From: Chiloscyllium plagiosum
Lineage: Eukaryota
Direction of reading: 5' to 3'
DNA length: 64,000 nt
Assembly: GCF_004010195.1 (NCBI RefSeq)
Contig: NC_057719.1
Span: 24,529,465 to 24,593,464 of the forward strand
In this document: piece by piece, positions 8,540 through 64,000 of the stretch
Layout of the letters: each line of letters starts with the position of its first letter
Numbering within the stretch: the stretch's first letter is position 1
The notes under the pieces: model-generated
What the model was told of the DNA's origin: nothing
The model's database searches: none
What the model saw: only the letters and a program-made list of their open reading frames with translations
Position numbers and translations under genes: made by a program

Positions 8540-8630
8540 ACCCACGCTGGACTCGAAACTTTAACTCTATATCTCTGCACAGATGCTGCCAGACCTGCTG
8601 AGTTTCTCCAGCAATTTCTGTATTTGTTAC
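8540..8630 (+). mobile_element. Penelope-derived short element, family B, hammerhead truncated
   Basis: GGACTCGAAACTTTAACTCT...GATGCTGCCAGACCTGCTGAGTTTCTCCAGCAATTTCTG matches the 24664 and 33280 copies. The CTGANGA half of the core is missing. Confidence 0.7.
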
Positions 8631-9094
8631 AACAGGATCTGAATGAGCTGATGTAGCATTTTTCATTTTTGCCACTAAATATCTCCGTACTGAGCATAGC
8701 AAGTCCAGAATGTGCTGATTGATTGTAGCTGAAAACATGAAAAGAAGTATGCCTGAATTTACAGAAATGCACAAATCAGGCAGCAACTTCAGTAAACTGT
8801 AGATTGGTAGTTAAACATGAAAATCTGTAAATAGCTGTCTGAGATATGCTATTTTGCCATAACTGTGTGAAATGTCATGTTGCTGTACAACTTCCTATTC
8901 ATATATCCTGACCAGTTAAAGATAGATAATGCACTAAACTGCAGAAGTTAGGACATGCTGATATCAATTTTAGTAAGAAGAGTATGCCAGAATGTTTTCA
9001 GACATGGAGCATAACAATTATAGGGATCAACTGGAGAAATTGGACAATTCTCCTTTGAACAGAAAAGATTGGAGATTTGATATAGGTACATAAG

Positions 9095-9360
9095 TTATCA
9101 TAGAATTCCTATGGTGTGGAAACAGGCCATTTGGTCCATCGAGTCCGCACAGCCCACCTAGACTGTCCGACTCTGTAACCCTGCATTTCACATGGCTAAT
9201 CCACCTTGTCTGCATATCCCTTGACACTGTGGGTGACATAGCATGGCCAATCCGTCTAACCTGCACATCTTTGGACTGTGGGAGGAAACTGGAGAAAACC
9301 CACATAGGCAAGGAGAGAATTTGCAAACTGTTTACATGAGGGTGGAATCAAACCCGGGTC
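9095..9360 (-). mobile_element. HE1-type SINE, 5' truncated
   Basis: Body CTGCACATCTTTGGACTGTGGGAGGAAAC shared with the other copies; stops at the B box. Confidence 0.8.
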
Positions 9361-10570
9361 TCATCCCTTACCAACAAGGCCACTCCACCCCCTCTGCCCG
9401 TCAGTCTGTCCTTACGATAGCACGTGAAGCCTTGAATATTCATTCCCCAGGCCCTGTCCACTTGAAGCCACGTCTCAGTTATCCCCACAATATCGTATCT
9501 GCCAATTTCCAAAAGAGGCTCAAGCTCATCCATCTTATTTTTAATGCTTCGTGCATTCATTTTATTATTTTTAATTTGTTACTGCCCTCACCCTTCCCAT
9601 CAACTCCTATTTCACTCAACCTTACAGCATGATCCCTTTCTGAGGTTTCTGCCTCATTGATACAGTTGTCTTTCTTGACTTCCCTTGTTCTAACTTTCCC
9701 TCCAATTTCCTTCTTAAACATCCAGTTTGTCCCCTTCCCCCTCCTACTTATCTTAAACGTAGCTGTGTTGCAGTAGCAAACCTGCCTGCCAGAATGCTGG
9801 TCCCTAACCTATTAAGGTGCAAACTGTGTCTCTTGTAGAATTTATGCTTACCACAAAACATACCCCAGTGATCCAAGAATTTAAATCCTTGCTTCCTGCA
9901 CCAGTTCCCCAGCCACACATTCAAGTCCATTATCTCCCTGTTTCTGGCCTCACCAGCCTGAGGAACTGGAAGCAAACCGGAGATAACCACCTTGGACGTC
10001 CTGCTTTTCAGCCTTCTTCCTAGTTCTCCGAAGTCCCGCTGTAGTATATTCCTCCTCTTCTTCCCGACATCATTTGTGCCGACGTGTACCACCACCTCTG
10101 GCTCTTCACCTTCGTCCTTGAGGATTTCCTGCACTCTGTCTGTGATGTCTTTAACCCTGGCACCAGGAAGGCAACACACCATCCTTAAGTCCCGTCTGCT
10201 GCCACAAATACCCCGGTCAGTTCCTCTCACTATGGAGTCCCCTATTACCACGGCTCTGTGCAATGTCCAACTCTTCCGCTCTGTCTCCATGCCAACTTTT
10301 GATTGACAGACCTGGCCGCCTCGTGGACTGGCAGTGTTATCTGTCTCTAATGTTTCCAAAAGTTTCAACGTGTTCCTGACAGGTACTTCACCCAGGGTCT
10401 CTTGCACCTGTCTCCTCTCTGCCTTCCTCATCGTCTGCTCTCTTCTGGTACGATTGCTGTAATAACCTCGCTGAAGATCTTCTCCAGAAAGATCTCGTTC
10501 TCTCGGATGAGCCTAAGGTCCTCGAGTTCTTTCATCAATGCTGCAATATGCTCTGTCAGTAGCTGAACGT
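9361..10570 (-). mobile_element. CR1 LINE 5' part: ORF1 SGNH esterase and the start of the ORF2 endonuclease
   Basis: ORF 9748-10431 has VVIGDSIVRG, VHVGTNDV and LHLN (SGNH/GDSL esterase motifs of CR1 ORF1). ORF 9348-9560 has NARSIKNK, GITETWL and GGGVAL (APE endonuclease). Confidence 0.9.
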
Positions 10571-11180
10571 GCCCCTCATAATTTTATAAACGTCTATAAG
10601 GTCACCCCTCAGCCTCCAAAAACAGCCCAAGTTTATTCAACCTCTCCCTATAGCTCAAATCTTCCAACCCTGGCAAATATCCTTGTAAATCAATTCTGAC
10701 CCTTTCATGTTTCATAACATCTTTCTGATAGGAAGGAGACCAGAATTGCATGCAATATTCCAAAAGTGGTCTAACCAATGTCCTGTACAGCCATAAAATG
10801 ACCTCCCAACTCCTGTACTTAATACTCTGACCAATAAAGGAAAGCATACCAAACGCCTTCTTCACTATCCTAGCTATCTGCGACTCCACTTTCAAAGAGC
10901 TATGAATCTGCACTCCAAGGTTTCTTTGTTCAGCAATGCTCCCTCGGACCTTACCATTAAGTGTATAAGTCCTGCTAAGATTTGCTTTCCTAAAATGCAG
11001 TACCTCACATTTATCTGAACTCCATCTTCCACTTCTCAGCCCATTGGCCCATCTGATCAAGATCCTGTTGTAATCTGAGGTAACCTTCTTCGCTGTCCAC
11101 TACACCTCCAATTTTGGTGTCATCTGCAAACTTACTAACTATATCTCTTATGCTCTGATCCAAATCATTTATATAAATGA
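10571..11180 (-). mobile_element. CR1 LINE reverse transcriptase, C-terminal fragment
   Basis: PLLFIIYINDLD, SKFADDTK, KCEVLHF and LVRPLLEYC motifs, broken by frameshifts. Confidence 0.92.
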
Positions 11181-11254
11181 TGAAAAGTAGTGGATTCAAT
11201 TTAAAATTCGTTAGACTTTGTTTTTCTTTAGCAATTAATTACTAAGGAAGCATG

Positions 11255-11357
11255 TTGCAAAAACAGAAATTGCTGGAAAAGCTCAGCAAATCTGGCAGCA
11301 TTTGTGGAGAGAAATCAGAGATAACATTTCGAGTGGAGTAACCTTCCTTAGAACTCA
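11255..11357 (-). mobile_element. Penelope-derived short element, family B-like, degenerate hammerhead
   Basis: Minus strand reads AGTT-CTAAGGA-AGGTTACTCCACTC-GAAATGTT followed by the family B tail. Confidence 0.65.
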
Positions 11358-12153
11358 GATGCCAGATACCTTTTTCAAGGCATAACATCATTTCACTGTC
11401 ACGAATGTCCCTCTTGCATAAGTTTAACATACAGAAATTCAGGAGGTTAAATGGACAACAGCAAGTCTAACAGACCTTGGATGCTGTTTGTTTGTTGGCC
11501 ATTGTATTAATTCTGGTCTAATGCTAAATTGTGGATGCTGCTTTAAGTTACAAATTATGAAAACTGTTAAATAAACATGATAAACTTGTAGAAATATCGA
11601 TAAAGACTAGCTCAAGTATTTTGTGTTGTTAGAGAGTTTTTCTTAAACTTAGCTGTCATGCTTATCTATTTTAAATTGTTATTATGGTTCCTCTTTATAC
11701 TGATTGTTAAGCATTTAAAAGATTCAGTAAGAAGGTAATTGCAAAAGGTTTGCCTTTTTCAGAAATTGAACAATTTCAACCATACAGTATATCACTGAAG
11801 ATGAAAATTATTATTTTCTTCATGCTTTGTCATTTAAGAGTTTGACTTGTGGAATGCTACAGTGCCTCATTTATGTATCCAATTATAATGCAATGGCAAT
11901 AGCGAATGAGGTGTATGCTGACAGCCACATCTCAACATTGCTGGTTCAATGCATAATTGGCTTATATAGAGAACAGTTTTCTTTGACTATTCATGGTGCA
12001 ATAACAGGGAAAACTGCAAATGTTCAACAGATCTGGCAGCATCTGTCAAGAGAGAAACAGAACTAGTGATTTAGGTCTGTGACCTGCAGATTTCCAGTAT
12101 CTGCATTAATTATCTTTTGACTCTTCACTTTTAGTTGGGCTTCTCCTTCATCT

Positions 12154-12975
12154 GACCTTGACAGGATGCAGAGCTGGGCTGAGAAGTGGCAGATGGAGTT
12201 CAACCTGGAAAAGTGTGAAGTGATTCATTTTGGAAGATCAAATTTGAATGCAGATTACAGGGTTAAAGGCAGAATTCCTGACAGTGTGGAGGAACAGAGG
12301 GATCTTGGGTTCCACATCCATAGTTCCCTCAAAGTTGCCACCCAAGATGATAGGGTTGTTAAGAAGGCATATGGTTGTTGGTTTTCATTAGCAGGGGGAT
12401 TGAGTTTAAGAGCCGCAAGATTATGCTGCAGCTCTATAGAGCCCTGGTTCGACCCCACTTGGAATATTGTGTTCAGTTCTGGTCACCTCATTATAGGAAG
12501 GACATTGAAGCTTTAGAGAGTGTGCAGAGAAGATTTACCAGGATACTACCTGGACTGGAGGTCATGGCTTATGAAGAAAGTTTGAGGGACCGAGGGCTTT
12601 TCTCATAGGAGCGAAGAATAATGGGAGGTGACTTGATAGAGGTGTACAAGATGATGAGAGGTATAAAGTGGATAGTCAGAGACTTTTTCCCAGGGTGGAA
12701 ATGGGACATAATTTTAAGGTGATTGGAGCAAGGTTTAAGGGTGATGTTAGAGGTAGGTTCTTTACACAGAGTGGTGAGCACGTGGAATGCACTGCCAGTA
12801 GTGGTAGTAGATTCAGATACATTAGGGACATTTAAGCAACTCGTGGATAGGCGGATGGATGATAGTGAATTGTAGGCTTTATAGGTTAATTTGATCTTAG
12901 AGTAGGATAAAAAGTTGGCCGAACATCGAGGGCAGAAAGTCCTGTACTATGCTATACTGTTCTATGATCGATGTT
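12154..12975 (+). mobile_element. CR1 LINE 3' fragment
   Basis: WQMEFNLEKCEVIHFG and LVRPHLEYCVQFWSP; ends in a TTCTATG-type repeat tail. Confidence 0.92.
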
Positions 12976-14094: not shown

Positions 14095-14448
14095 GAGTCA
14101 TAGGTTCCCTACAATATGGAAGCAGGCCATTTAGCCCATCAAGTCCCCACCGCCCCTCTGAAGAGCATCCCATCCAGACTTATTTCCCCCCCTCCCCCAA
14201 CACACAACCCCCCACTATCCTTGTAACCCTGCACTTTCCATAACTAATTGACCTAGCCTGCACATCACTGGAAACTATGGGCAATTTAACATAGCCATTC
14301 CACCTAACCTGCACATCCTTCGAGCACCCAGAGGAAACCCACGTAAGCACAGGGATAATGTACAAACTTCACACAAACAGTCGTCAGAGGCTGGAATTGA
14401 ACCCGGGTCCCAGGCGCTGTGACACAGCAGTGCTAACCATTTGAGCCT
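14095..14448 (-). mobile_element. HE1-type SINE
   Basis: tRNA-like head on the minus strand (GGTTAGCACTGCTG...GGGTTCAATTCC) and the shared body. Confidence 0.82.
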
Positions 14449-23564: not shown

Positions 23565-24661
23565 GTTGTGTGCTTGGAGGAAACTTGGAGGCAGTGGTGT
23601 TCCCACAGGTCCTCCTTCTGCTGGACTGCATCCTTTCATTTTGAGCTTTGACTCATTAGCATATCCTGCTTTTAAAGCAAAACAGCTCTTAAAGGGGAGT
23701 GGTCAGCATTGTGTCAGCTGTCTCCCAGTGGTGGGAGATGATGGGAAACTGCGATTTCAGCTTCCAACCAATTAAGTCTTTGTCCTTGTAAGTTGTAAAG
23801 CTCGTGATATTAGAAAGTGCTGTTGAAGGAGGCATGATGAATTGCTGCAGTGCATTTTATTTTGAGTCACCCCTGTGCATCAGTTGTTCAAAGAAATAAA
23901 GAATATTTAAGTTGGTTAATTGGCTGTTGATCAAGCAGGCTGCTTTAGCCTAAATACTGCTGAGCTTAAGTATTGTTAGTGTTACACCCATCCAGGCAAC
24001 TGACAAGTTTTCCATTACACTCCTGACCTGTGCCTTACAGATGGTGGACAGGCTTTGGAGACTCAGGAGGTGAGTGAATCGACTCAGACTATCAATCCTG
24101 AACCTCTGACTAGCTATTGTAGCCAAAGTACTAACTTAACTGGTCCAGTTCAATTTCTGGTCAATGGTCACATGATGATGCTGATGTTGGAAGAGTCAGT
24201 GATGGTAATGCCATTGTAAGTGGGTGACAGTTAGATTCTGTTTTGTTGGAGATATTCATTTTACCTGGCACTTGTGAAGCATGATTGCTCTTGCACTTAC
24301 CAACCAAAGCACTAATAATAATCTGGTTGTAAATGGTAACAATAATTGTGCAATCATCAGCAAACATTCTCACGTCCAACCTTATGATGGATCGAAGATC
24401 ATTGATGAACAAGTTGGGCCTAAAACATGACCCTGAGGCACTATTCCTGCAGCAATGTACTAGAGCTGTAGTGATTGGCCTCCACAAATTAATCAATAGA
24501 GAGTTTTGACCTGGATTCTCATTGACCTCACATTTACCTCGGCGTTTTGATGCCACATTGTTGAAATGCTGCATTGATGTCAAGGGCAGGAATTGCCACC
24601 TCCCCTATCAAGCGAATCACTTTCCATTGATCAAGAGGAGGCTGATGAGGCGGTAATTGGC

Positions 24662-24698
24662 AGTTCTGATGAAGGGTCACTGGACCCGAAACGTTAAC
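24662..24698 (+). ncRNA. Minimal type I hammerhead ribozyme motif, family B, core intact
   Basis: GTT-CTGATGA-A-GGGTC-ACTG-GACCC-GAAA-C-GTT-AAC. All core residues present, 5-bp stem II, palindromic stem III region (AACGTT), stem I GTT/AAC. Confidence 0.8.
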
Positions 24699-24762
24699 GC
24701 TGCTTTCTTCCCTAGGGGCTGCCAGACCTATTCATTTTCTCTCGCAATTTCTGTTATTGTTT
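24664..24762 (+). mobile_element. Penelope-derived short element, family B
   Basis: Hammerhead plus tail, flanked by GTAATTGGCAG (24653-24663) and GTAATTGTCAG (24763-24773). Confidence 0.8.
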
Positions 24763-25019
24763 GTAATTGTCAGAATTGGATTTTGTAGACAAGACAGACC
24801 TGTCATTTACAGGCCAGCATTGTGGCTATATGGAACAGCTTTGCTCAGGGCATAACTAGTTCTGGAGCCAGTCTTCAGCACTGTTGCTGGGATGTTGTCA
24901 GAGCCCATCATTTTTGCAGTGGCTCGTTCCTTTTTCTGTTTATTGATATCACATGGAGTGAATCAATTGGCTGAAGCACGGGCACATGCATTGCAGGCAA
25001 CATCAGAAAGAGACTAAAA

Positions 25020-25660
25020 CTATAAAATGTAGAAGCAGAAGGAGACCATTCAGCCCATTGAGTCTACTGCACTCAGCAAAAGTGAGGACTGCAGTTGCTG
25101 GAGATCAAAGTCAAGAAGTGTGGTGCTGGAAAAGCACAGTCGGTCAGGCACCATCTGAGGAGTAGGGGAGTCGATGCTTTGAGCATAAGCTCTTCGTCAG
25201 GAACTCTTGATGAAGAGCTGATGCTTGAAACGTCGACTTTTCTGCTCCTCAAATGCTGCCTGACTGGCTGTACTTTTCCAGCACCACACTTTTTTTCAGT
25301 CTACTGCACCACTCAATGAGATTATGTCTGATCTGGTAATCCTTAATTCCACTCTCCTGCCTTTTTCCCAATACTCTTGATTCCCTTTTACAGTAAAGAA
25401 TTCCACCCCTTTTCTTTAAGTGAAGAAATTCCTCCTCATTTGTCTTAAATGGGTGAACCCTCATTCTGAGATATGTCTTTTAATCCTAGATTCTCCCACC
25501 AGGCGATGCAACCTTTCCACATCTACATTGCGAAGCCCCCAGGACTGGTGTATGTTTTGGTAATTTTGTTTCTCATTCTTCTAACTTCCAACAAGCACAG
25601 GCCTAACATGTTCAAGCTGTCCTCCTCACCTGATATCAGCCTTGTGAACCCTCTCTGACT
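25020..25660 (-). mobile_element. CR1 LINE 3' fragment, interrupted by a hammerhead element
   Basis: Degenerate LGL.LLEVRRMR and HPFKT motifs; tail similar to 36415 and 47100. Confidence 0.7.
25073..25297. mobile_element. Penelope-derived inverted-pair element, family A
   Basis: Imperfect inverted arms centred near 25203, a degenerate hammerhead on each strand, and AGTCTACTGCAC duplicated at 25061-25072 and 25298-25309. Confidence 0.82.
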
Positions 25661-30381: not shown

Positions 30382-30573
30382 TGGCTTTGTGGGGGGGCTG
30401 GTCACGTAACCCAAACATATTATTAGAAAGCAGGAATTATCAGCAGTGCTTCGCTCAGAGGCCCACTGAAGATGTTACCTAGTAGGGTGATGAAACGTCT
30501 GGAAATGAACCTTCTAACTCAGCGAGCAAACCTACATCCAGAACCTCAACCTGAGCTACAAATCTTCTCAAAA
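30382..30573 (+). mobile_element. Short hammerhead-bearing insertion (family C) inside the CR1 RT
   Basis: Non-CR1 sequence interrupts the RT between SQHGFV and LIEFFEDVT and contains a hammerhead core. Confidence 0.7.
30463..30502 (+). ncRNA. Minimal type I hammerhead ribozyme motif, family C, core intact
   Basis: CCA-CTGAAGA-T-GTTACC-TAGTAG-GGTGAT-GAAA-C-GTC-TGG. Stem I CCA/TGG, 6-bp stem II with two G-U pairs, GUC triplet. Confidence 0.75.
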
Positions 30574-31867
30574 TCTTATTGAATTCTTTGAGGATGTGAC
30601 AAAATACATTGAAGAAGGTAGAGCAGTGGATGTGGTGTACATGGATTTTTAGCAAGGTGTTTGATAAGATTTCCCATGGTAGGCTCATTCAGAAAGTAAG
30701 GAGGCATGGGATACAAGGTAATCTGCTGTCTGGATACAAAATTGGCTGGCCCATAGAAGACAGAGGGTGGTGGTAGATGGAAAGTATTCAGCCAGGAGCT
30801 TGGTGACCAGTGGTGTTCCATATGGATCGTTTCTGGGACCTCTGCTGTTTGTGAATTTTATAAATGACTTGGATGAGGAAGTGACAGGGTGGGTTAGTAA
30901 GTTTGCCGATGACACAAAGATGGAGTTGTGGATAGTGTGAAGGGCTATTGTAGGTTGCAACACGACATTGACAGGATGCAGCACTGGGCTGATAAGTGGC
31001 AGATGGAGTTCAACCTGGAAAAGTGTGAAGTGACTCACTTTGGAAGGTCGAATTCGAATGCAGAATGTAGGATTAAAGGCAGGATTCTTGGCAGTGTGGA
31101 GGAACAGAGTGATCTTGATCCTCGAAGTTGCCACCCAGGTTGATAGGGTTGTTTAGAAGGCACATGGTGTGTTGGCCTTTAGTAGTAAGGGGATTGAGTT
31201 TAAGAGCTGAGAGGTTATGCTACAGCTGTATAAAGCCCTGGTTAGACCACACTTGCAATATTGTGTTCACTTTTGATCGCCTCATTATAGGGAGTATGTA
31301 GAAGCTTTAGAGAGTGTGCAGGTGAGATTTATCAGGATACTGCCTGGACTGGAGGGCATGTCTTACGAAGAAAGGTTGAGAGAGCTAGGGCTTTTCTCAT
31401 TGGAGCGAAGAAGGATGAGAGATGACTTGATAGAGGTGTACAAGGTGATGAGAGGCATAGCCAAAGACTTTTTTTCCCAGGGTGGAAGTGGCTATCAAGA
31501 GGGGTCATAATTTTAGGGTGATTAGAGGAATGTTCAAGGGTGATGTCAGAGGTAGGTTCTTTATTACCACTGCTGGCAGGGCATTCCACGCACCCACCAC
31601 TCTCTGTGTAAAGTCAGATTAATTAGGAGCATTTAAGCGACTTTTGGATAGGCACATGGAAGATAGTACAATGAAGGGTATGCAGGTTTGTCTGATCTTA
31701 GAATAGGATAAAAGGTCGGCACAACATCGAGGGCTGAAGGCCCTGTACTGTTCTATGTTCTATCTCTATGCCTATAAATAATGTGCCTAGGTGCTCCGTT
31801 ACACTCCACCTAACAAAGGAACAGTGCTCTGAAAGCTTGTGAATCCATTTTAAATCTGTTGGACTGT

Positions 31868-32550: not shown

Positions 32551-32710
32551 CTATAACCTGGTGTCATGCGACTTCTGACCTTACTCACTACAGTCCAATA
32601 TCAGCACCTCCACAACCTGATTAACAAAACATTAGGATGTAAAATGGGTGGGATCATCGAAGAATTGAATAGCTATCTTGGGCTTGTGGAATAAGGACCT
32701 GTCTTAGTGA

Positions 32711-32917
32711 TTAGATCAGAGTGGTGCTGGAAAAGCACAACAGGTCAGGCAGCATCCGAGGAGCAGAAAAATCGATGTTTCGGGCAAAAGCCCTGATGAA
32801 GGGCTTTTGCCCGAAACGTCGATTTTTCTGCTCCTCGGATGCTGCCTGATCGTGCTGTGCTTTTCCAACACTCTTATCTAAACTCTGGTTTCCAGCATCT
32901 GCAGTCCTCACTTTTGC
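32711..32917. mobile_element. Penelope-derived inverted-pair element, family A
   Basis: Inverted arms of about 80 bp; flanks CCTGTCTTAGTGAT and CCTGTCTTGTTAGTGAT. Confidence 0.85.
32793..32820 (+). ncRNA. Hammerhead ribozyme core, family A (5' strand of stem I lost)
   Basis: CTGATGA-A-GGGC-TTTT-GCCC-GAAA-C-GTC. Confidence 0.75.
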
Positions 32918-33280
32918 CTGTCTTGTTAGTGATCAAGTATAACTGGCCAGAATTGGAATAGAAATAGATTTAAGCAAGACTAATTTTAGAAAGGGATAAA
33001 ATGGAAAGAGTTTGTGAAAAAAAAGCAGAGAAAAGAAAAAAGGTGAAGAAACTCAAAATAGAACATGAATTCTGTAGATGAGAAGTGATGCTGGCTCGGA
33101 GAGAACTCACTTCTTTTTAATTGTGTGAGGAATTTCTGCTTAATATTTCAACATAGTGCCCTTCAAGAAAAGTGACTAAATCTGAAATGGTAGGAAGTAC
33201 AATGGGCTTTGCTCCTGCATTGTGTTTTGTTAGGGAAAGTTGGAGGTGTACTTAACCCTTTCAGCAGATTTTAAGAAAGC

Positions 33281-33508
33281 GAAAACAGAAACAAAAACAG
33301 AAATTGCTGGAAAAGCTCAGCAGGCCTTGCAACATCTGTGAAGAGAAATCAGAGTTAACGTTTTGGGTCCAGTGACCCTTCCTTGGTACCAGACCCGAAA
33401 CATTAACTCTGACATTTCTTCACGGATGTTGCCAGACCTGCTGAGCTATTCCAGCAACTTCTGTTTTTGTTTCTGATTTAAGGCACCTGTAGTTCTTTCA
33501 GTTTTCAC
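33281..33508. mobile_element. Penelope-derived inverted-pair element, family B
   Basis: Inverted arms of about 85 bp centred near 33385 with partial hammerhead halves (GACCCGAAACATTAACT); AAGAAAG on both flanks. Confidence 0.82.
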
Positions 33509-34429
33509 AAGAAAGTAAAAGCTGGTATCCCCAATATGTGTAAGTTGATGCCAAGGGCAGCTGGGCAGAAATTAACAATTGTGAGAGAGAATGGGGTAGA
33601 CTTATGCAGCATTTGGCAGGTAAAAGAAAATGGTCCCTAATATGTTGCGCATGTCGATGAAAGTGGACAGAGCTTCAATAACCTTAAAAAGATAATGTTT
33701 GTGGAAGAATTCAGCACTGGCATATCTCACCTGGTACTCTGCAAAGTTTGTAACATAAGGGGACATCAGTAATGGTGGATAATTTTGAGTTAACTCATAC
33801 AATAAATAGTAATAAGACTCACTTTGAAAAATCAGATTATTCAGAGAGATTAGAGATTTAATAGTGAGAAGGATCAGTTTTAGTGAGAAATTGAGAGCCA
33901 GAAGGTCCTCAGAGTTGCTAAGGAGAAAGATGTTAACTTTGGTTTGAGCAGATAAAAATGCTATACTTATCATTAGAAAAGGACGTGTCAATACTGTTGG
34001 AAGTGGAAAATAAAGCTTGTAACATTTATATGCTTGCATAGTTCACCTCTAGTAAAGTTGACAACAAGCAGAAAGTCTCCACTTTCATTCACAGTAACTT
34101 GGGACTGGAAAGCTATGGAAGGTCTGTTTGAGGGTGATGTCCCCATATTCATCAGTTGAAACAAGCAATTTCATTATTCACCTGACATGTCTAGGAACAG
34201 CGCAGCCATTGATTATGGCAAGTGTCTCTAAAATGCTACTCAAAGTACTCAAAGCAAATGATGAAACAGAAGGTAAACATGTTTTGAAGGATAGTGAGAA
34301 AAATGAGCCTACATCAGACACAAAAGAGCTACGAGAAAGTATATTCTTGAATTAAAATTATAATTTCAAAGTAAAGCAATTACTCTACTAGAACAGAATA
34401 AAACAAAGTTCAAATGCAGTAGGAGGATA

Positions 34430-37148: not shown

Positions 37149-37149
37149 C

Positions 37150-38310
37150 TGTAATAAAGTAGATGAGTTGTTGGCACAAATAGCTATCAACTTACTTTAA
37201 TTTATTTCTATTAAGAAGTCATGATTGCGGGGTGACCAATACTGGAAACTGAATATTCAGGCTATATTATGAGATATGATGTTCCAGAAGAATAGGCAAA
37301 GAAGGGGAGGTAGCTTTGTTAATAAAGGAAAGTATCAGTGTGGTGCTGGGTAGTGATATAGATGTGATAGATTGTGATATGAAATCAGTCAGGAATAGCA
37401 AGGGCAAGAAATAATGGGTGGGAGTTGTTTATAGGTAGCCAAAGACTTGCCTCACTGTCGGATAGAGTATAAACTTGGAAATAATGGAGGAGTGTCAGAA
37501 GGACACTACCATTGTCGTAGGTGATTTTAATCAGCATATTGACTGGACAAATCAGATATGAAATGATAACACAGAAGATGAACTTGCAGAGTGCATCAGA
37601 TTTTGTTTCTTGGAGTAGTATTTTGGAGAACCTGAAACCAAAATAGAAATTGCTGGAGAAACTTTAGCTGGAGGACTGGCAACATCTGTGAAGAAAAAGC
37701 AAAGTTAACGTTTTGGGTCCAGTGACTCTTCTGCAGAACCTGCCATGAGCAGGCTATTTTACATGTAGTGATGTGTGATGAGAGAATTAATAAGAAATAT
37801 CATAGTTAAGGTAGGGGAAGGTGGCGAGCAATCACAAGATGGTACAGTTTCAAATTCACTTTGAAGGAGAGCAACTTGGGTTTCAAACCACGTGTCTTCA
37901 ACTTAAAGACTGGAATTACAGATGTATAAGAAAAGAGCTGTCTTAAGTGGTCTAACTAGACTAAGGGGAAAGTCAGTGAGTTGAATAGTGGCAGGTATTA
38001 AGGTATTTCATAACACCCAGGGAAAATTTATACCATTCAAAATGAGAAGCATGAACCATCTGTGGTTAACAAAGGCAGCCAAGGAAAGTACATAGTCAAA
38101 GCTATGACATAAATGGGCAAATGCTAGTGTTAAGTTAAAGGATTGGGAATTTATAAGGAACCAGCAGTGGATGACGAAAAAGACAATAAAGAGGAAAAAA
38201 AAACTGATTATGAATGTAACTTGGCAAGAAATATAAAAACAAATGTCTGGAGAATCTGTCATTATTTTTGGAAGAGTTTGAGAAGGACTCGAAGAATTTG
38301 CATCCATTGT
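37150..38310 (+). mobile_element. Decayed CR1 ORF2 endonuclease region
   Basis: NKVDEL, GGVALLIK, GVVYR, VVGDFN and PWLT-like remnants. Confidence 0.75.
37635..37734 (-). mobile_element. Penelope-derived short element, family B
   Basis: Degenerate core on the minus strand (GAGTC-ACTG-GACCC-AAAACGTTAACT); AGAACCTG duplicated at 37627-37634 and 37735-37742. Confidence 0.75.
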
Positions 38311-38710: not shown

Positions 38711-38948
38711 CCTAGGAAAAAGTGAGGACTGCAGATGCTGGAGATCAGAGTCGAGTGTGTGGTGCTGGTAAAGCACAGCAGGTCAGGCAGCATCCAAGGA
38801 GCAGGAGAATCGATGTTTTGGGCATAAGCCCTTCATCAGGAATAAAGGGCTTATGATTCCTGATGAAGGGTTTATGCCCGAAATATCGATTCTCATGCTC
38901 CTCAGATGCTGCCTGACCTCTGTGCTTTTCCAGCACCCTCCTCTCAAC
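38711..38948. mobile_element. Penelope-derived inverted-pair element, family A
   Basis: ATTC-CTGATGA-AGGG cores on both strands (~38807-38843 minus, ~38856-38892 plus); flanks CTCTGATTGA and CTGTGATTGA. Confidence 0.85.
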
Positions 38949-41559
38949 TGTGATTGAACAATTAATTCATATTTAATTTACTTTGATTCTGGTTTGTGTT
39001 AAAGCTACACAGTTTGAAATATTGTTTGCGTCAGCTGTTAACTTTGGTTATTTTGGTTAATGTTTTTTCCCACAGGGAGCATAAAACTACTTTGGAAAAG
39101 ATCAGGGAAGTTAGCACAGGTCAGCAATCTAACCTGGGCTCTTGTGAGACTGCATGGCCCCTGATAAACCTTTTAGCTTTCAGAGTCAGCGACAGTCAAG
39201 AATATATTTTTAGGACTAGATTCAGTTATGCACTGCAGACTGTGTAAGGCTGTCTGAATCAATATGAGGGGAAGGACTTTTAAAATGATGAGTGAATTGA
39301 ATTTTAAAAAATAATTTTCTACTAACTGGATTGTATGACTGAGATTTATGGCTAATCTATTTGAAAGGAGTTGTTTAAGCATTAAAATAACTGAATGAAG
39401 TTAAATATCTCTCAAACTTCAGGGTCTCAGAAATATTCCATTCAGCAACAATAAAAGATTGAAAACTGCAGTTTTGTTCCTTTCTAATTAAGGTAATGGA
39501 GAATGTTTTCCTTTTCCCTTTCTGAGCTTTCTGGATCGCATGGGAACAGCACGTAACACAAAATGACGTCTGTGCAATTGAATGCTTATATTGGAACCTC
39601 TGGCCTAATGTTTTTACTTCATCTACCTGAATGAATAGAAAACTATGTGCACCCATTTCAGGGGCTGTGATGTAGCAAGATAAAAATGGAACCTGTTTGG
39701 ATTGTCAGGTGCTATGTTATTTAACTGCTACAATCTCCATTCTACCTCTGGTAGGTAAAAAGATCTCCACTGCGACTCCTATACGAAATATCAGTAAAGA
39801 GGGAATTTATGGTTCACTTTCTAATCTTCTGCTGGTGTTCTTGTTATGCCTTAGGATTGCTTAGTTACATCAGTTAGTGGTTTCTGAGCCAGTGATGACA
39901 ATGCCCCCAAAGTCCCAGATGGAGAAAAGTACCTTGTGGTAGCCTTTACTTCCATAACACGTCCCTTCCAGTACTTAACGATTCCTCCCTACCTCTAACC
40001 TCCAACTATCCTGCAAACCTCTTATCTTCCTTTGCGCATCGAATTCTGGCCTCTTGAAAACCCTGGTTTTAATCATTGCAGTATTGATGGATAGTAAGAG
40101 TCATTTCAGACTGTGGCAGGGGCAGAAACTTGATAGGAGGAATTCCAGAAAAGAGTTCTCAGAAAAGTAGGCAGAAATTTGGGAAATGAGAAAATGCTCA
40201 ATGACTTTGGGCAGTTGGAGATAGAGCGGGAGTTTGCAAACATGTAGTTTTGAACATTAGGGTAATGGTGGTAGAGTTAAAGGAAAGATGAACAACAGAA
40301 TAAAAGCATGGAGACCCTAATAGTAATGTGAGGAGGATGAGGGGAAGTTGGGTGACCAGTAATTTAGCTGAAATAGCCTGGAGGAAGTAAGAGGTGCATC
40401 TTCTGAAAAAGTTAAGCTTGGGGAACATGTGAACAGAGATTGGGGAGGTGCTGGAGAAAGATGAAAGTTCAGGGCTCAGACAGTAGGAGACTTCACCAGA
40501 AGTTCATTCCGGTGCACTTGTGAGACAGCAGAACACAACAGAGACAACCGATCAGGAGAGCTTCGTCTTAGTGATGAAAATGTCATGAGTTCCTTGCACA
40601 TTTTGATGATGATGAGGATAGAGAAGGCAAAGGAAAGGGGTCGAAGAAGATGTTTTGCAGAACAGTGATGGAGTAGGTTAGTGATAAAGGCAAATTTTCC
40701 AAGTAGAATAACTGACAGTGTAACAATGCAAATGTTGTGTTTATTGCCCAGCAGAAGGACTGGTGTGATAACTCCAAAGTTTAATTCAAGCTATCTAATT
40801 ACCTGTTCACTAACTTTCAGTATGAATTTGGTGAATGGAATCATCCTGCCTCCGAATTTTCGAGTTCAGCTATTACTTTTGAGAACATACATGCTTTGTT
40901 AATGGGAAAACAGATAATTGTATCAACTGATAAGTACAGGAAGGAACAGGAATGCCAACTCACTGGATTTGCTTTGACACTGTGTGAGATTGTAAAATGG
41001 GTTTTAACGAATCAAAAGCATGTTTTGTATATCTCCCAAATTTTATTCACATTGACTTTAATGAATTGGAATGGACTGTCACAGCATCATTTTTGTACCT
41101 GTAGATTTCTGAAAAATTAACACTTTATATTTTAATTAAAACTCCATGAAAATTGGACAACCTGCATTGTAACAAGATGGAGTCAGGTGATCAGGTGACC
41201 TTGTCTGCAAAGACATGTGATATCTGCCTGAAGTTGGGCATTAGATTGACTATTCAAGAAATTGAAATGTGAATGATGGCTGAATCGTTTCTTTAGATAA
41301 ATACTGGTTACGTTAAATTTTGAGTTCCAACAAGGCTTGGTGAGCTTTCCAGGAGCATCTTATCAAAGTTGCTTTATTAACTACTTAGCCAGCCTTGTGG
41401 CACCTCATTCATCCAATTCTAATCCCATTCTACCAGGCACCATATCTGGAACAACTGCCGGTGTATCCTAGAATGGATCTACATTCTTGGCACCAACTTT
41501 AAAAGGCTACTTTGCACCCAAGCAAGCATTGTTAGTCAGGAGTTCTTTGCATGATTCCT

Positions 41560-49249: not shown

Positions 49250-50645
49250 GGAAAAAGTGAGATCAGAGTCGAGTGTGTGGTGGCAGAAAAGCATAGCAGG
49301 TCAGGCAGCATCCGAGGAGCAGGAGAATCGACATTTCGGGCATAAGCCCTTCATCAGATAAATGGGTAGGTGTGAGGGTGGGGGGAAGGTAGCTGAGAGT
49401 GCGATAGGTAGACAAAGGTGGGGGGAATAGTGATAGGTCAGAGAGTAGGGTGGAGCGGATAGGTGGGAAGGAATATGGACAGGTAGGACTGGTCGTGAGG
49501 GCGGTGCCGAGTTAGAAGGTTGGATCTGGGATAATGTGGGGGGAGGTGAAATGAGGAAACTGGTGAAGTCCACATTAATCCTATGTGGTTGGAGGGTCCC
49601 ATGGCGGAAGATGAGGCGTTCCTCCTCCTGGCGTCTGTTGGTTGGGGTTTGGCGATGGAGGAGGCCAGTACCTGCGTGTCCTTGGCAGAGTGGGAGGGGG
49701 AGTAAAGTTTTCGGCCAGGGGGTGGTGGGGTTGCTTTGTGCATGTGTCCCAGAAATGTTCTCTGAAGCATTCTGCGAGTAGGCGTCCTGTGTCCCCATGT
49801 AGAGGAGACTGCATCGGGAGCAGTGGATACAGTAAATGACGTGTGGAAGTGGGAGTAAAACTCCGATGGCTGTGGAAGACTCCTTTGGGGCCTTAGACAG
49901 AGATGGGGGAGGGGTGTGGATGCAGGTATTACACTTCCTGCAATAGCAGGGGAAGGTGCCGGGAGGGGAGGGTGGGTTGGTGGGGGGCATGGACTTGACT
50001 GGAGTCGTGGAGGGAGTGGTTTTTATGGAATGCAGATACTGATGGGGAGGGAAATATATCAGTGGTGGTTTGTAGGTGGCAGAAATGACGGAGGATGATA
50101 CTATGTACAAGGAGGTCGGTGGTGTGGAAGGTGAGGACCAGGGGGTTCTGTCCTCATTGTGGTTGGAGGCATGTAGTTTGAGAGCGGAAGTGTGGTAAGT
50201 GGATGAGATGCGCTTGTGGGCATCATTGACCACGTGGGAGGGGAAATTGCAGTCTTTGAAAAAGGAGGCCATCTGGTATTTTCTGTGGTGGAATTGGTTC
50301 CTCCTGGGAGCAAATGCAGCAGAAGCAGAGGAATTGGGAAAAAGGGATTGCGTTTTCTACAGGGTAGGCCGAGGTGTAGTCCAGGTAGCTGTGGGAGTCG
50401 GTGGGTTTGTAGAAGATTCAGTGTTGATTCAGTGATGGAAATAGATACGTCCAGGAAGGCGAGGGAGGTGTCCGAGATAGTCCAGGTGAACTTGCGATCG
50501 GGGTGGAACATGTTGGTGAAATTGATGAACTGTTCAACCTCCTCATGGAAACATGAGGTGGTGCCGATACAGTCCTCAGTGTAATGGAGGAAAAGGTGGG
50601 GAATGGTGCCAGTGTAGCTGTGGAAGGTGGACTGTTCCACAGGCT
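49250..50645 (-). mobile_element. Penelope-like retroelement, 5' truncated (RT C-terminus, GIY-YIG endonuclease, terminal repeat with hammerhead)
   Basis: FLHYTEDCIG (decayed YIDD) and FLDVSIS; CNTCIH; VIYCIHCSRCSLLYMG then frameshifted GDTGRLLAECFREH; ERLIFRHGTLQPHRIN. Perfect 11-bp TSD GAGCTGAGCAG at 49239-49249 and 50646-50656. Confidence 0.88.
49325..49357 (-). ncRNA. Hammerhead ribozyme core, family A, in the Penelope terminal repeat
   Basis: Minus strand CTGATGA-A-GGGC-TTAT-GCCC-GAAA-T-GTC-GATTC. Confidence 0.75.
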
Positions 50646-50869
50646 GAGCTGAGCAGCCTAGGTAATCAGGTATTGCCAAAAATATATTGTTTGGATTCAC
50701 CCCTGTAGTTCCCATCAGCAATATCTGGGGTGAACTAAAGAGCAGTCATCCACAAATTAACAATTTAATAAGAAAGTTGGCACCGTGTCATTTCAGTTCA
50801 GAAATCTCCAGACAATATTTTCAATCTGGCTGATACTGTTCTTGCCCATCAAGGTCAACATGGTTCTCA

Positions 50870-55304: not shown

Positions 55305-55415
55305 TCCCATGCAGACACAGGGAGAACATGTAAATTCCACACAGACAGTTGCCTGAGGCTGGAATTGAACCTAGGTCCCTGGTGTAGGATAGTAGTGCTA
55401 ACCACTGAGTCACCA
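55305..55415 (-). mobile_element. HE1-type SINE 5' fragment
   Basis: Minus strand TGACTCAGTGGTTAGCAC...GGTTCAATTCCAGCC. Confidence 0.78.
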
Positions 55416-57976: not shown

Positions 57977-58204
57977 AGAAAGTGAGGACTGCAGATGCAG
58001 GAGATTAGAGCTGAAAAATGTGTTGCTGGAAAAGCGCAGCAGGTCAGGCAGCATCCAAGGAGCAGGAGAATCGACGTTTCGGGCATAACCCCTTCTTCTG
58101 GAATGAAGCCCTTCCTGAAGAAGGGCTTATGCCCGAAACATCGATTCTCCTGCTCCTTGGATGCTGCCTGACCTGCTGCGCTTTTCCAGCAACACATTTT
58201 TCAG
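57977..58204. mobile_element. Penelope-derived inverted-pair element, family A, young copy
   Basis: Near-perfect arms (~58008-58103 and ~58112-58207). Perfect 16-bp TSD CTCATCTTGTCCATGG at 57961-57976 and 58205-58220. Confidence 0.9.
58112..58146 (+). ncRNA. Hammerhead ribozyme motif, family A
   Basis: TTC-CTGAAGA-A-GGGC-TTAT-GCCC-GAAA-C-ATC-GATT. GTC has become ATC, consistent with CpG decay. Confidence 0.68.
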
Positions 58205-58811
58205 CTCATCTTGTCCATGGCCAAACTATGGAGCACGGCGCGTTCTACAAATACCAGGCACACATACCCTTTCACCACAGATATTGGCACTCCTCTTTCA
58301 GACAGCCTTGACCCTGGCATCCTTCAGTGCACTGGCAGTGTACCCAGCAAGGTGTAAACCATGTTTCCTTTTATTTATGTTTGATTGTGGACTGAATTGG
58401 GAAAAGAACTGTTTTAAAAACCAAACATTGTTGACAGAGTGCAACAGTTTTTGAGATCAAGTAACCTGACACTCATTGTAAGTACTGTTTACAAAGCTGC
58501 AACTTCAAACAGTAGTAGGATTGCAGATGAGGAAACCAAGTGCTTGTGCTAATAGAGATTCAGCTGGCAACAAGTAGCTAATTGGTCTAGTGACAAATGG
58601 TCAATAACAAAGGCCTTCTGCTGACAAATGATGATGCGATTGGTTCCAGATAGCTGATCACCTTGGGATTGTGAACAGAATAGGAAGAAGGCTCAGATCT
58701 CCACAGTTTCAGCAGCTGCCTCTGTTCCCTGCAGTAAAACACACACATTAAGTCTGAACAAAATTAGATTATTTTTCCTTCAGTCCAGAGACAGAGGTTA
58801 ATGTTCTAGTG

Positions 58812-59050
58812 ACAAAAACAGAAAGTGCTTGGAAATCTCAGCAGGTCTGGCAGCATCTGTGGAGAGAAACCAGAGTTAATGTTTTGGCTCCAGTGACCCT
58901 TCTTCAGAATCCGTTCCGAAGAAAGTTCACTGAACCAGAAACATTAACTCTGATTTATCTTCACAGGTGCTTCCAGACCTGCTGAGATTTTCCAGCAGTT
59001 TCTGAGTATGTTTCAGATTTTAGGCATCTGCATTTCTTCAGTTTTTTTTG
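58812..59050. mobile_element. Penelope-derived inverted-pair element, family B
   Basis: Inverted arms centred near 58911. The minus core reads CTGAAGA-A-GGGTC-ACTG-GAGCC-AAAA and the plus core is more decayed. Confidence 0.8.
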
Positions 59051-59054
59051 GATC

Positions 59055-59370
59055 TAGGGGTGTGGATTCAAAATTCCCATTATATCCAAATGGCGAAATT
59101 TGAATTCACTAAAAATCTGAAATTAAACATGAGTGTCAGTGGTGTCTATGTAACCGATTGTTAACCAACCTACCAGGTTCACAAATGCCCTTTCGGGAGG
59201 GAAATCTGTCATCCTTACCTGGTCTGACCTACACATAACTCCAGACCCACAGCAATATGGTTCACTCAGAATTGCCCTGTGAAATGGCTCTAGAAAGTGA
59301 TTCAGATTAAGAACATCAGGAATAGCCCATCGAGCAATGCCCACATCATATGAATGAATGAATAAACTAA
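59055..59370 (+). mobile_element. SINE-like dispersed repeat
   Basis: Related to 36773-37148; ends in ATGAATGAATGAATAAA. Confidence 0.55.
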
Positions 59371-59984
59371 AAAAGATTAACTACAAACCCAGTCCATGCT
59401 TTCTGGATTCAAAAGTGAGGGAAATTGGGGGATTCTGCAAACCTTTCAAAATCTTTAATTTTTATGACCACTGTAAGATAAAGGTGTTGATTTCCAGTGT
59501 GCTTCCTCATTGAGTTGTGACAAAGAGCAAACTTGTCTAACAGGGCACACCAAGAACCAGCAGTGATTGTCTGCATTGGGTATAGTTCTTGCCCAGGGAC
59601 AGGTCCCCAGTCCAGATCAGGTCGTCTGCCAGGACTCCCTCGCTCTCTTAGCATCTGTTCAATGGTACCTGCTGTCGTGGCTGCAATCTGTACACTTTGC
59701 CTTGCCCTGTCACACCCTGCAGAGGCAACTAATGCAGTCACACAACCAGGACAGTGGCTGTGTTGTGCAGCAGTCGCCAGTCAAGGGCAAATGGATCTTG
59801 TCTTATGCCAGTCCAGCACCTGAACCACATGGACTCACCATTTGCTCCAAACAGAATAAGCAGTAGAACATGGCTGAAAGTCTTAGTGGAGTGGTCCACA
59901 GTAAAAGTCTTTGGGGCACTCCTCAGTAAGGGGGTTCAAAAGGTTAGTCAAGGGCAGCCTTCCTTGCCAGTCCCAGAATTCAGG

Positions 59985-60112
59985 CGAAAGTGGGTACTGA
60001 AGATACTGGAAATCAGAGTCTAGATTAGAGTGGTGCTGGAAAAGCACAGCAACTCAAGCAGAGTCTGAAGGAACAGGAAAATCAACATTTTGGGCAAAAG
60101 CCCTTCATCCAG
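59985..60112 (-). mobile_element. Penelope-derived short element, family A
   Basis: Minus strand CTGGATGA-A-GGGC-TTTT-GCCC-AAAA (decayed core) plus the family A tail. Confidence 0.75.
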
Positions 60113-61334: not shown

Positions 61335-61600
61335 TCAAAGCATGAGCCTTGGGGAGAGGTAAGTTCGATGGTAGAGTGAGTGTGAGGTGATCAGGGGGCA
61401 GAGTATGTAACTTATCCTCACAGACCAAAGAAGATCATTGACCTTCTTCCAGCACTCCTGCTCAGCTCTCCTCACCCCAGCAATGGCATTGATCAAGGTA
61501 GCACTCCTGACTATGTTGACATGGCCTGGTGGTATGGCCTCCTCTGTCAGTCCTCCGGGAAGTGGACTCATCTCCTCTCCAATCCGCCATCCACATGAAC
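61335..61600 (-). mobile_element. PIF/Harbinger-type Myb/SANT-like ORF remnant (element probably spans ~59.4-61.9 kb)
   Basis: INAIAGVRRAEQECWKKVNDL resembles the R...QC.KK.NDL helix of Harbinger-associated Myb/SANT proteins. Confidence 0.5.
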
Positions 61601-61949
61601 CTCTAAGTCTCTCTCTGACAAGTGTGATGCCAGCCTGCCCTTCTCTGACATCTCTCCTGGCTCCTTCAGTGACTGAGCATGGCAGCTTCTGGATGGCAGT
61701 ACTCCTCCAGGTGCCTTGCGGGATTTGAAATCAGGCACAGACACAAGGGGAGTTGCTCTTAGGGCAATGTCTGGTGAGTTCCTTTATAAATGGCATGTTG
61801 TAAGATGGGCAAAAATGGGCCTGATACTCATCACAAGGGCTGAAACACCAAACAATATGGTGAGTTTGGTAAGATACAGTGAGAAAACTCACTTAGCTTC
61901 ATGAGGAGAATCACTCCACCAAACTCAATGCAAGTCAAACTCTGACACA

Positions 61950-62320
61950 AAAGGTGATTTCATTGAAATATATAGGATTGTTATTAGGATTAATGCGGAG
62001 AGGATGTTTCCCCATATGGGAGAGTCTAGGACCAGAGGGCAAAGTCGCAGAATAAAGAGATGACAATTTAAAACTGAGATGAGGAATTTCGTCTCTCGGG
62101 GTTGAGAGTCTTTGGAAGTCCTTGCCACAGAGAGTTGTGGGAGAGTTGTATGTTTAAGACTTAGATAAATGCTTGGTCAGTAGGGGAATCAAGCATTGGA
62201 GGAGAGGGCAGGAAAATGGACACTAGGTGCACTGGATCAGCCACAATCGTATTGAATAGCAGAATAGGTCTGAGGGGCAGAATGCCCTACTCCAGTTTCA
62301 ATTTCTTATGATCTTGTGAT
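61950..62320 (+). mobile_element. CR1 LINE 3' end fragment
   Basis: ERMFP.MGESRTRG..FKTEMRNF; TTCTTATGATCTTG tail. Confidence 0.8.
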
Positions 62321-62380
62321 TGCATATGTGTCTATTGAAAAAGGAGCTTTAATGTGGAAACAGGGGTGACCCTTCACTGA

Positions 62381-62513
62381 AGGGCCCTGAAGAAGGGCTC
62401 ATGCCCAAAACGTTGATTCTACAGCTCCTTGGATGCTGCCTGACTTGCTGCGCTTTTCCAGCAACACATTTTCAGCTCTGACCTCCAGCATCTGCAGTCT
62501 TCACTTTCTCCTA
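62381..62513 (+). mobile_element. Penelope-derived short element, family A
   Basis: CTGAAGA-A-GGGC-TCAT-GCCC-AAAA-CGTT (G of GAAA mutated) plus tail. TSD ACCCTTCACTGA at 62369-62380 and 62514-62525. Confidence 0.85.
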
Positions 62514-64000
62514 ACCCTTCACTGAGGCTTGGGTGCCTGGAAGATTGTTGTAGAGGTAAAAGAGTTGATTTTTTTATCGGTGAGGAGATTGTTACAAATT
62601 GTTGTATTATAATAAAGTTGGTGCTTTTTCTTTCATGTAACAACATTTTTATTTGTTTTTATTAGTGTACTTTAGCAATCTTTTATGTATATTGAGCTAC
62701 TGACCTCGATAGTAAGCAAAAAGAAAATAAAAACTTAACGCCTATCAAATCAGACTTCACTCTGGGATTTGACTGGTCCATCATTACCATCAGCTGGGAT
62801 GATAATAAATTCCCTCAAAAATGAACCTCTGCAGTTTGTTCCCAATCCTCTTCTGGAAAGTATCTGATGGCTTCTACTAATGAAGTTCATTTCAATAGCC
62901 TGTCGCTGATGTTACATTTTAGGGGAAGGGGAGGACACTGTATGCACAATTTAGGGCCTTAGCACCTGTTAAAGGAGCACATTTACAAATTCTGTTCGAT
63001 AAAAGTTTTGAACTGTTTGAAGGCTTTCCAGTGTTGTGAAGGCTTTCCAGTTAGAAGATGCTATGGGCATTACAGAAAGACTCGCACTCATTTAGACAGA
63101 CTTAACATGGCCGTGCAATAAGGGCAGGGAATTTATGTAGCTTTATTCTTACAGCTACATTTACAACGACAGTTGATCAGACAAACAGATGATATAAATG
63201 GCTATATATTTACAAATGTGAGTCTGTTTGCAATGAAATGTCACCTATGCCATCTGTGTGCCCTCGGAAGGTATTCTTTTTCATTTCCCTCCCCATATGT
63301 TTTCTGTGAAGGGCTGTTCTTGGCTGGCAGGGATTGACCTGTTGCACAGCTGGGTTTTAAATATAATGCCAGCAGCACGAATCACAGAAGGTCCTGGTGG
63401 TGGCAGGTACATCCACTGCTGGTGAGCACACAATAATGAGCTTGACACCATGGAGATGTGGTGCATACGTATTGAGGCAAACAATGAAGAATTGCATGAA
63501 TTAACTCACTAGAACTCAGAAAATTTTAATAAAACTCCCTGAAATTGACACTATACCAATTTTTAGTAAACTCCAGCGAAGATTCTGAAATGACACTATG
63601 AACACCTATATTCGAATGCTAAATTCATTTGTCTGATAGTCTTCTGTTTATTTGCCTGAGGAATTAATGCACTTAATTTGCCAAAGAACTGTAAGAAAGT
63701 TGTGACAATGTTGAGACTGTTAAAATTTGACGGAGAAAATTTCTTTTCCCTCTTATTTTCACAATGTCCAGCCAAGGTATGGGCTTGATTACTTAGCCCA
63801 AATTCATGATTAAATGAGATGAAGAAAATTTCCCACAGCAAGTTTGATTTTGATCATTTTTACATTTCATAGGGTTATGTATTTTAGGCTTTTTAGTTAA
63901 AGCAAACATTGTTCTGATTTCCAGTGGCCTGAAACCCAATGACCTCCCACAATTGCTTTCCCTGAAATGTTATTTCATTTTCTAAGGCACTTACCATGTA

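Follow-up and report, generated by a model that had tools for sequence, protein, structure and literature searches.

Short hammerhead-bearing Penelope-like units in the genome of Chiloscyllium plagiosum and the leader RNA from which most of them probably derive

The genome of the shark Chiloscyllium plagiosum is densely populated by short units that carry all or part of a hammerhead ribozyme core, and 16 of them lie in the 64-kb stretch analyzed here (contig NC_057719.1, 24,529,465 to 24,593,464; hereafter the window, with positions 1-64000 denoting the whole stretch). They derive from at least four families of Penelope-like elements (PLEs), of which they are decaying terminal fragments. Each unit is a segment of the pseudo-long terminal repeat (pseudo-LTR), which closes one element at its 3′ side and serves the next as its leader. 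We put the probability at about 70% that most of the short units, or stubs, are reverse transcripts of a capped, uncleaved 5′ leader beginning at the first bases of the hammerhead. The feature is real and belongs to a known class; as far as its sequence tells, it is no active system of ribozymes, and what makes it valuable is probably the record of mechanism preserved at the ends of the units.

The units were initially detected with a regular expression for the core, a repeat finder and folding (several are long inverted repeats), and were sought with profile hidden Markov models (HMMs) of four families, designated A to D. A sample of 120 stretches of 10 kb, taken at round coordinates from the large contigs (1,155,683 non-N bases; small contigs of the 3.56-Gb assembly were unsampled), contained 312 units (A 171, B 74, D 44, C 23).

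Putative Promoter, 5′ Ends, and the Extra G

In the pseudo-LTR, a TATA or TATA-like box is followed after about 30 nt by an initiator-like site and then by the hammerhead; the body reaches about +95 and the tail about +130 (arm coordinates take C3 of CUGANGA as position 0). In the family B parent, TATAAA precedes A(-4) by 29-30 nt; in that of family D, TATAAAT precedes A(-8) by 30 nt; and in that of family A, TTTATCT lies before A(-4). These A(-4) and A(-8) positions resemble the initiator consensus. Within -10 to +9 lie the 5′ ends of 77 of 172 family A arms and 28 of 70 family B arms, the family A mode falling at -4 (18 of 305 arms, with masked flanks of searched loci added), and 17 of 68 family D arms begin at -8 to -4.

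Both the family D position and an extra G were predicted ahead of counting. Exact matches were counted genome-wide for the base before the predicted +1, at which the parents of A, B, and D have C. In family A, G precedes A(-4) in 3230 matches vs. 2129 for A/T, compared with G 596 and A 458 at a control position one base further up; in family D, the counts before A(-8) are G 1055 and A/T 761, compared with G 335 and A/T 1503 at the control. For family B, G 496 and A 241 precede A(-4). When A/T is split by hand among the first 100 matches listed, the G/A ratio is ∼4.2 in D (control 1.1) and ∼2.3 in A (control 1.3). In independent contigs, six of the 12 displayed joints fall on A(-4), and five of these six end in G. 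A similar untemplated G in LINE-1 (a long interspersed element, LINE) has been ascribed to reverse transcription of the cap (PMC9341517).

The cleavage site, in contrast to the initiator, has no excess of starts (433 at +28 vs. 359 at +31 in whole-genome exact counts; 3 of 172 arms start at +25 to +29), and RNA cleavage products were rejected as the usual template on this ground: cleaved RNA was rarely the template. A splice acceptor behind the 5′ pile-up was also rejected, as the truncated copies examined share no upstream sequence and young family A copies have no AG there. A steeper rise of contig depth downstream of -4 in two presumed-RNA runs than in DNA runs was left unused, since contigs show neither starts nor levels.

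The same ends might be produced by ordinary 5′ truncation after priming on the 3′ pseudo-LTR, with the reverse transcriptase (RT) stalling, or the RNA being trimmed, at the edge of a folded or protein-covered hammerhead, and with the G supplied by terminal transferase activity or microhomology. Truncated lengths do form a continuum up to kilobases, the G is often common to the target-site duplication (TSD) or the other arm, and a lizard PLE protein requires a region that includes the hammerhead (Frangieh, 2024; PMC11167929). However, the end is sharp to one base, with about 4600 purine junctions before A(-4) (A there being estimated from the first 100 matches listed) vs. 1054 one base up; it moves with the initiator, from -4 to -8, staying ∼30 nt behind a TATA-like box; and the first side of the structure to be reached by an RT travelling 3′ to 5′ along the RNA would be its 3′ side. 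We therefore regard truncation as unlikely.

Fold-Backs, 3′ Ends, and Target-Site Duplications

Head-to-head fold-backs make up 78 of the 312 sampled units, and no two of their 78 centers are the same. Leaving aside 13 in which an arm is broken, the remaining 65 have both arms complete; 56 of these carry one tail, five carry two and four carry none, an excess of the one-tail form over the 32.5 expected (p 1e-9). The 3′ ends of family A are bimodal, near +94 and +130, in agreement with the lizard PLE, whose RT starts internally at two sites on either side of the tail (Frangieh, 2024). TSDs, with a mode of 14-15 nt and mostly of 12-17 nt, accompany 36 of 78 fold-backs vs. 2 of 622 shuffled pairs. 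In contigs from four runs, one and the same arm start is joined to the other arm in many different ways, and the fold-back form is therefore not only a product of assembly; no contig spanned the center of any window fold-back by 31 letters on both sides.

One proposed origin of such palindromes is self-priming on an antisense template (Arkhipova, 2013; PMC3846280), or the snapping back of a single cDNA. Short copies of nearby stem sequence at the centers, perfect palindromes at some of them, and the correlation between arm starts within pairs (rho 0.42) would suit this route, but each arm's outer end is one of the two ends that single arms use, and in one family D copy (L109) both arms show the extra G. 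Furthermore, a hand count of the 56 one-tail pairs found that the tail-less arm reaches further 5′, toward the center, in 30 (by more than 10 nt in 19 of them), the tailed arm in 24, with two ties. Since snap-back can neither add a tail to a tail-less cDNA nor outrun a tailed one, two primings are indicated in at least those 30 pairs, which agrees with the extension of both strands in vitro, and we consider a self-primed origin very improbable.

A further alternative, to which we give the least credence, is that stubs or hairpins are non-autonomous elements, akin to short interspersed elements (SINEs), miniature inverted-repeat transposable elements (MITEs) or retrozymes, that are transcribed and re-mobilized as units. 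The turning point of one long fold-back is common to 31 of its 40 scored matches, a few center types recur among 30 loci chosen for similarity to one query, and copies with more than 40 nt of upstream sequence retain the core promoter. Against this, the 78 unselected centers all differ and ends are not in excess at the cleavage site. The fixed ends and shared interior of a MITE or palindromic unit are likewise missing, the ends being asymmetric. Non-LTR retrozymes are defined by head-to-tail tandems with a hammerhead in each (bioRxiv 10.64898/2026.07.22.740005), whereas each of the 312 units sampled is either a single arm or a head-to-head pair, with no tandem arrays of short units among them; the partial tandems that were seen carry sequence from the start of the open reading frame and are suspected gap-fill products. 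Mobility of whole hairpins, which identical long fold-backs might suggest, was set aside, because these copies adjoin N gaps and the same flank accompanies three of them on different contigs, a pattern that points to gap filling.

This pattern was observed in two series of loci (L072-L101 and L272-L301), where young long PLE copies with identical interiors sit beside N gaps, many of exactly 244 N, three having one common flank. The young long copies in both series are likely gap-filling chimeras of the assembly, and the identical long fold-backs and N244 tandems are probably artifacts. In partial tandems of a young family A subfamily, also gap-fill suspects, the tail runs into an open frame whose first ATG lies ∼40 nt downstream.

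The preferred reading, that of a capped and uncleaved leader as template, would operate as follows. RNA polymerase II would start at the initiator (-4 in A and B, -8 in D), which would make the hammerhead the 5′ end of the RNA. The element's protein would cut both DNA strands, and the RT would begin inside the RNA at two sites bracketing the tail, as it does in vitro for the lizard PLE. An RT that starts on the leader would run off the cap after 100-135 nt, adding a C opposite the cap that is read as the extra G. Priming could take place on both 3′ overhangs of a cut staggered by ∼15 bp, at +130 for one of them and at +95 for the other; microhomology, with short templated fill-ins, would then join the ends of the two cDNAs into a head-to-head hairpin with one tail. 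A single primed strand would give a single arm. We lean, by a little, toward extending this to vertebrate Neptune-type PLEs in general: the hammerhead would come first in a capped mRNA, both strands would be primed at two fixed sites of the uncleaved leader, the one-tail hairpin would be a direct integration product, and cleavage would act as a switch away from retrotransposition. If so, nearly a million stubs would preserve a record of where transcription starts, of the cap and of the geometry of the cut, and ribozyme cleavage would remove the cap and sever the priming sites from the 3′ end of the full-length RNA.

Several observations weigh against the leader reading. The start site is suggested by motifs and DNA junctions rather than by an RNA 5′ end, and the box of family A departs from the canonical TATA. 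The 5′ peak is broad, in part from HMM boundary noise, and the HMMs were trained partly on copies out of the sampled stretches; many arms end elsewhere, 76 of 305 family A arms extend past -45, and family C has no 5′ pile-up, 21 of its 36 arms reaching beyond -45. With regard to the extra G, the family A control position itself favors G, the family B count lacks a control position and the HMM mode of that family falls at -2, not at -4, and young long copies that are partly gap-fill chimeras may bias the exact-match counts. The G also belongs to the TSD in several single arms and to the opposite arm in some fold-backs, so it is not always provably untemplated; such sharing fits a cap-derived C that guides microhomology, without proving it. 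A TSD above threshold was detected in only 18 of 142 short single arms. Finally, a full mRNA leader and a short solo pseudo-LTR transcript fit the data alike. The promoter layout is not universal, since the fly Penelope has a TATA-less internal promoter and starts upstream of an intron (PMC2377424).

At five loci (L003, L018, L086, L123, L206), family A units have inserted into copies of one other repeat, at positions within a few tens of bases of each other, which may reflect a target preference or simply abundance.

Hammerhead Core Among Families and Copies

A strict descriptor (CUGANGA, stem II of at least 4 bp, GAAA, paired 15.2/16.2, UH) matched five arms in the window, with cores at 24666, 30466, 32793, 38860, and 49357, vs. 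a mean of 0.15 in 20 shuffles; stem I reaches at least 3 bp at 24666 and 30466 only. Applied to 966 kb of other stretches of the genome, the descriptor matched 54 arms vs. 1, 1, and 0 in three shuffles. The sequence-only reading of the window had described three families sharing the core with changed stems; the shared core and changed stems stand, and the families number four with the addition of D. Its family A stem I (ATTC/GATT) contains a U-U mismatch, although one young subfamily has a perfect 4 bp, and its family C stem (CCA/TGG) is that of one subfamily, the majority having TCA/TGA, a compensatory change.

The catalytic core itself was correctly identified. All 11 invariant bases are identical across the four family majorities, and a UH site, a stem II and a palindromic 15.2/16.2 pair (C-G in A, B, and C; G-C in D) complete a minimal type I hammerhead. 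The possibility that the core is no more conserved between families than its flanks can be dismissed, as the core is fixed while stems I and II differ.

Among the copies, by contrast, the core decays neutrally. Core and median flank mutation rates are 0.047 and 0.048 in A, 0.156 and 0.154 in B, 0.070 and 0.051 in D, where the core is the faster, and 0.074 and 0.105 in C, where it is the slower (19 copies). G12, part of a CpG, is altered in 16-40% of copies. Copies that span the core retain every one of the 11 bases in 76 of 127 cases for family A, 6 of 41 for B, 7 of 19 for C, and 19 of 39 for D. Selection on copies was considered and not seen, a pooled core-flank difference in A and C being due to subfamily-diagnostic flank positions. 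Short copies have no upstream promoter, which together with cores decaying like flanks means that selection acted on the source elements, not on the stubs.

Fold-back cores lie on opposite strands, so a single transcript cannot supply a tandem dimer; a 2017 paper by Lunse et al. is said to deal with dimer cleavage. Stem II has a predicted pairing of 0.000 in all four family A fold-backs tested, where the modeled long hairpin (-145 to -191 kcal/mol) would remove it. With neutral cores, no promoter, opposite-strand arms and a stem II lost to the hairpin, the idea of a system of ribozyme-bearing units is not supported. An Rfam scan of the window gave no hammerhead match at E ≤ 5, and its microRNA (miRNA) hairpin matches were judged to be chance.

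Parent Elements

Frames encoding RT, a CxxC linker and GIY-YIG end ∼150 nt upstream of the family A arm. Two of these frames, of 893 aa (L141) and 749 aa (L145), score above cut-off for RVT_1 and just under it for GIY-YIG (21.2 and 21.5 vs. 22.6 bits); a genome search with the Pfam GIY-YIG model gave one weak match and was of no use for locating parents. For B, C, and D, broken coding remnants were found upstream of the arms. The family B parent resembles that of A, including the CxxC linker, and the family C parent is different; its endonuclease motifs may place family C in the Poseidon clade. The family D frame presumably ends in an endonuclease-like C-terminus, after which comes a long CA-rich untranslated region (UTR). 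Such a CA-repeat-rich 3′ UTR was observed in several family D parents (e.g., L200:8360-8920 and L173:8300-8830), and 20 of 68 family D arms extend past -45.

The Penelope origin first proposed from the letters alone is upheld by these RT and GIY-YIG frames upstream of arms, including a copy in the window (49253-50670) that matches the L141 frame with a tblastn E of 3e-65. That copy had been read as a short insertion at 49250, an interpretation that fails, as it runs to ∼50670 with remnants of RT, linker and GIY-YIG coding sequence. Family A has the single RT-then-GIY-YIG frame of endonuclease-positive PLEs, and the hammerhead-bearing pseudo-LTR, direct or inverted, with an optional 30-40-nt tail and a TSD, is also present. 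The CxxC motif in the RT-endonuclease linker would tentatively place A and B with the Neptune clade by the linker criterion of Craig (2021; PMC8557442).

Abundance

In the sampled stretches there is one unit per 3.7 kb, and the core region is kept in 251 of 312 units, or one per 4.6 kb; HMM matches span 4.9% of bases, within the limits of the models. Extrapolation gives ∼0.96 million units in the genome and, from the 54 strict matches in 966 kb, ∼200,000 matches to the strict descriptor. In four public runs, the summed contig depth of family A arms is 10^5-10^6 times that of unique flanks, which is not a copy number and is of the same order. The very large population and high density that had been supposed from the window are thus borne out elsewhere in the genome, and the window is typical of it. 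For annotation, this means that motif scans here will report some 10^5 hammerheads, mostly dead; fold-backs form perfect hairpins of ∼100 bp that mimic miRNA precursors and would give double-stranded RNA if transcribed.

Comparison With Known Systems

Hammerheads at PLE ends, their large numbers, opposite-strand pairs, inverted pseudo-LTRs, tails, TSDs and a putative TATA box plus initiator are already in print (Cervera and De la Pena, 2014, PMC4209133; Arkhipova, 2013; Craig, 2021). The minimal type I hammerheads that Cervera and De la Pena (2014) described in PLE pseudo-LTRs share with those reported here the core, a bulged base before stem II, a palindromic 15.2/16.2 without loop 3, and several consensus families per genome, and their copies are likewise mostly single and truncated; in Schistosoma, hammerhead pairs lie on opposite strands 100-700 bp apart. 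Their counts of ∼4,000 in coelacanth and 9,000 in Xenopus compare with ∼200,000 strict matches here, a figure that is extrapolated and obtained with a different descriptor. The available text of that paper names no cartilaginous fish and does not place the hammerhead at a transcription start.

Insertion units of endonuclease-positive PLEs comprise an inverted pseudo-LTR, a 30-40-nt tail and a TSD (Arkhipova, 2013; Craig, 2021), and the present units resemble them in the inverted 5′-truncated copy, the tail at one end, the TSD, the microhomology junctions, and the putative TATA box and initiator within the pseudo-LTR. They differ in that the bare 100-240-bp form is dominant, the ends are anchored at the initiator, and the TSD is 12-17 nt. 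Whereas those authors suggest antisense self-priming or endonuclease resolution, the data here favor twin priming on sense RNA. The in vitro system of Anolis Poseidon (Frangieh, 2024) is similar in its two tail-bracketing internal RT starts, the cutting and extension of both strands, a predicted dimer, the dispensability of hammerhead cleavage, and the lack of RNA reads ending at the cleavage site; the linkers of A and B are, in contrast, Neptune-type, and fold-backs, cap copying and leader-only inserts are not addressed in its available text. Non-LTR retrozymes (bioRxiv 10.64898/2026.07.22.740005) are also PLE-related, non-coding, found in vertebrates and equipped with a type I hammerhead; that survey sampled one chondrichthyan.

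In LINE-1, twin priming produces inversions through priming on both strands. LINE-1 primes at the poly(A) tail and inverts different, non-overlapping parts, whereas here both primings would copy the same leader from two fixed sites.

Our literature search, with most subscription papers, Repbase and Dfam lying outside it, found no description of these families and, for PLEs, none of initiator-anchored leader stubs, a cap G or twin priming; it likewise gave no relevant match for hammerhead ribozymes or Penelope palindromes in sharks, although families from cartilaginous fishes may appear in the supplements of the 2014 and 2026 studies. The origin of the inverted repeats and one-sided tails and the role of the hammerhead are called open by Craig (2021), Arkhipova (2013), and Frangieh (2024). 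The stubs provide base-level predictions for the in vitro PLE system: the start site, cap copying, twin priming, a ∼15-bp stagger and an uncleaved template.

Units in the Window

The window units (Table 1) comprise all 14 sites at which some 13 hammerhead-bearing insertions had been claimed, each matched by the profile HMMs, the tentative site at 31800, now assigned to the fourth family, and one additional arm. The insertions are real, and most of their arms have a decayed core. Six of the 16 are head-to-head fold-backs.

Table 1. Hammerhead-bearing units in the 64-kb window.
Unit	Position	Strand	Features
Family B single arm	8547..8630	+	Starts inside stem II; no CUGANGA; no tail
Family B single arm	11257..11355	-	Starts ∼-4; core decayed; no tail
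Family B arm, weak and old, newly added	12014..12084	-	HMM 24 bits, E 4e-6
Family B single arm	24660..24776	+	Minimal hammerhead complete (24666; GUU triplet); TSD 11 nt, one mismatch
Family A fold-back	25072..25293	.	Tail on left arm only; TSD ∼15 nt
Family C arm, Poseidon-like parent (presumed)	30405..30582	+	61 nt of upstream sequence; complete core at 30466
Family D arm	31766..31866	+	Own TATA region present; core decayed
Family A fold-back	32710..32923	.	Right-arm tail; strict core at 32793
Family B fold-back	33286..33513	.	Right-arm tail; cores decayed or truncated
Family B single arm	37623..37739	-	Core decayed
Family A fold-back	38712..38955	.	Left-arm tail; short stem II copy at center; G before A(-4) in right arm
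5′-truncated family A parent, 1.4 kb	49253..50670	-	Broken RT C-terminus, CxxC linker, GIY-YIG, 3′ UTR, then hammerhead (49357) and body
Young family A fold-back	57977..58207	.	Arms 97% complementary; left-arm tail; TSD 15-16 nt
Family B fold-back	58809..59061	.	Right-arm tail
Family A single arm	59977..60109	-	Tail present; core decayed
Family A single arm	62386..62514	+	Tail present; TSD 12 nt; G12 mutated

The segment 32896-33310 links a family A and a family B fold-back, and both of its junctions occur in contigs of two organisms (2 and 11 differences), so both insertions are older than the split of these organisms; the outer junction of the family A fold-back is also present in contigs of each.

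Other Repeats

A second abundant repeat of ∼300 bp, SINE-like and unrelated to the hammerhead units, occurs at 971-1255, 9092-9329, 14094-14456, and 16867-17063, with further copies at 23005-23274, 41784-42089, 48253-48692, and 55306-55414. We take the segments 9748-11099, 12121-12955, 15932-16662, 30685-31756, 51183-51830, and 54039-54783 to be fragments of CR1/L2-type LINEs, the first of which presumably includes an esterase-like ORF1 stretch (9748-10512), and 18976-20980 on the minus strand to hold remnants of an L1/Tx1-like endonuclease and RT. Outside the window, an open frame of ∼400 aa encoding C2H2 zinc fingers lies near PLE fragments (L132:249-1460).

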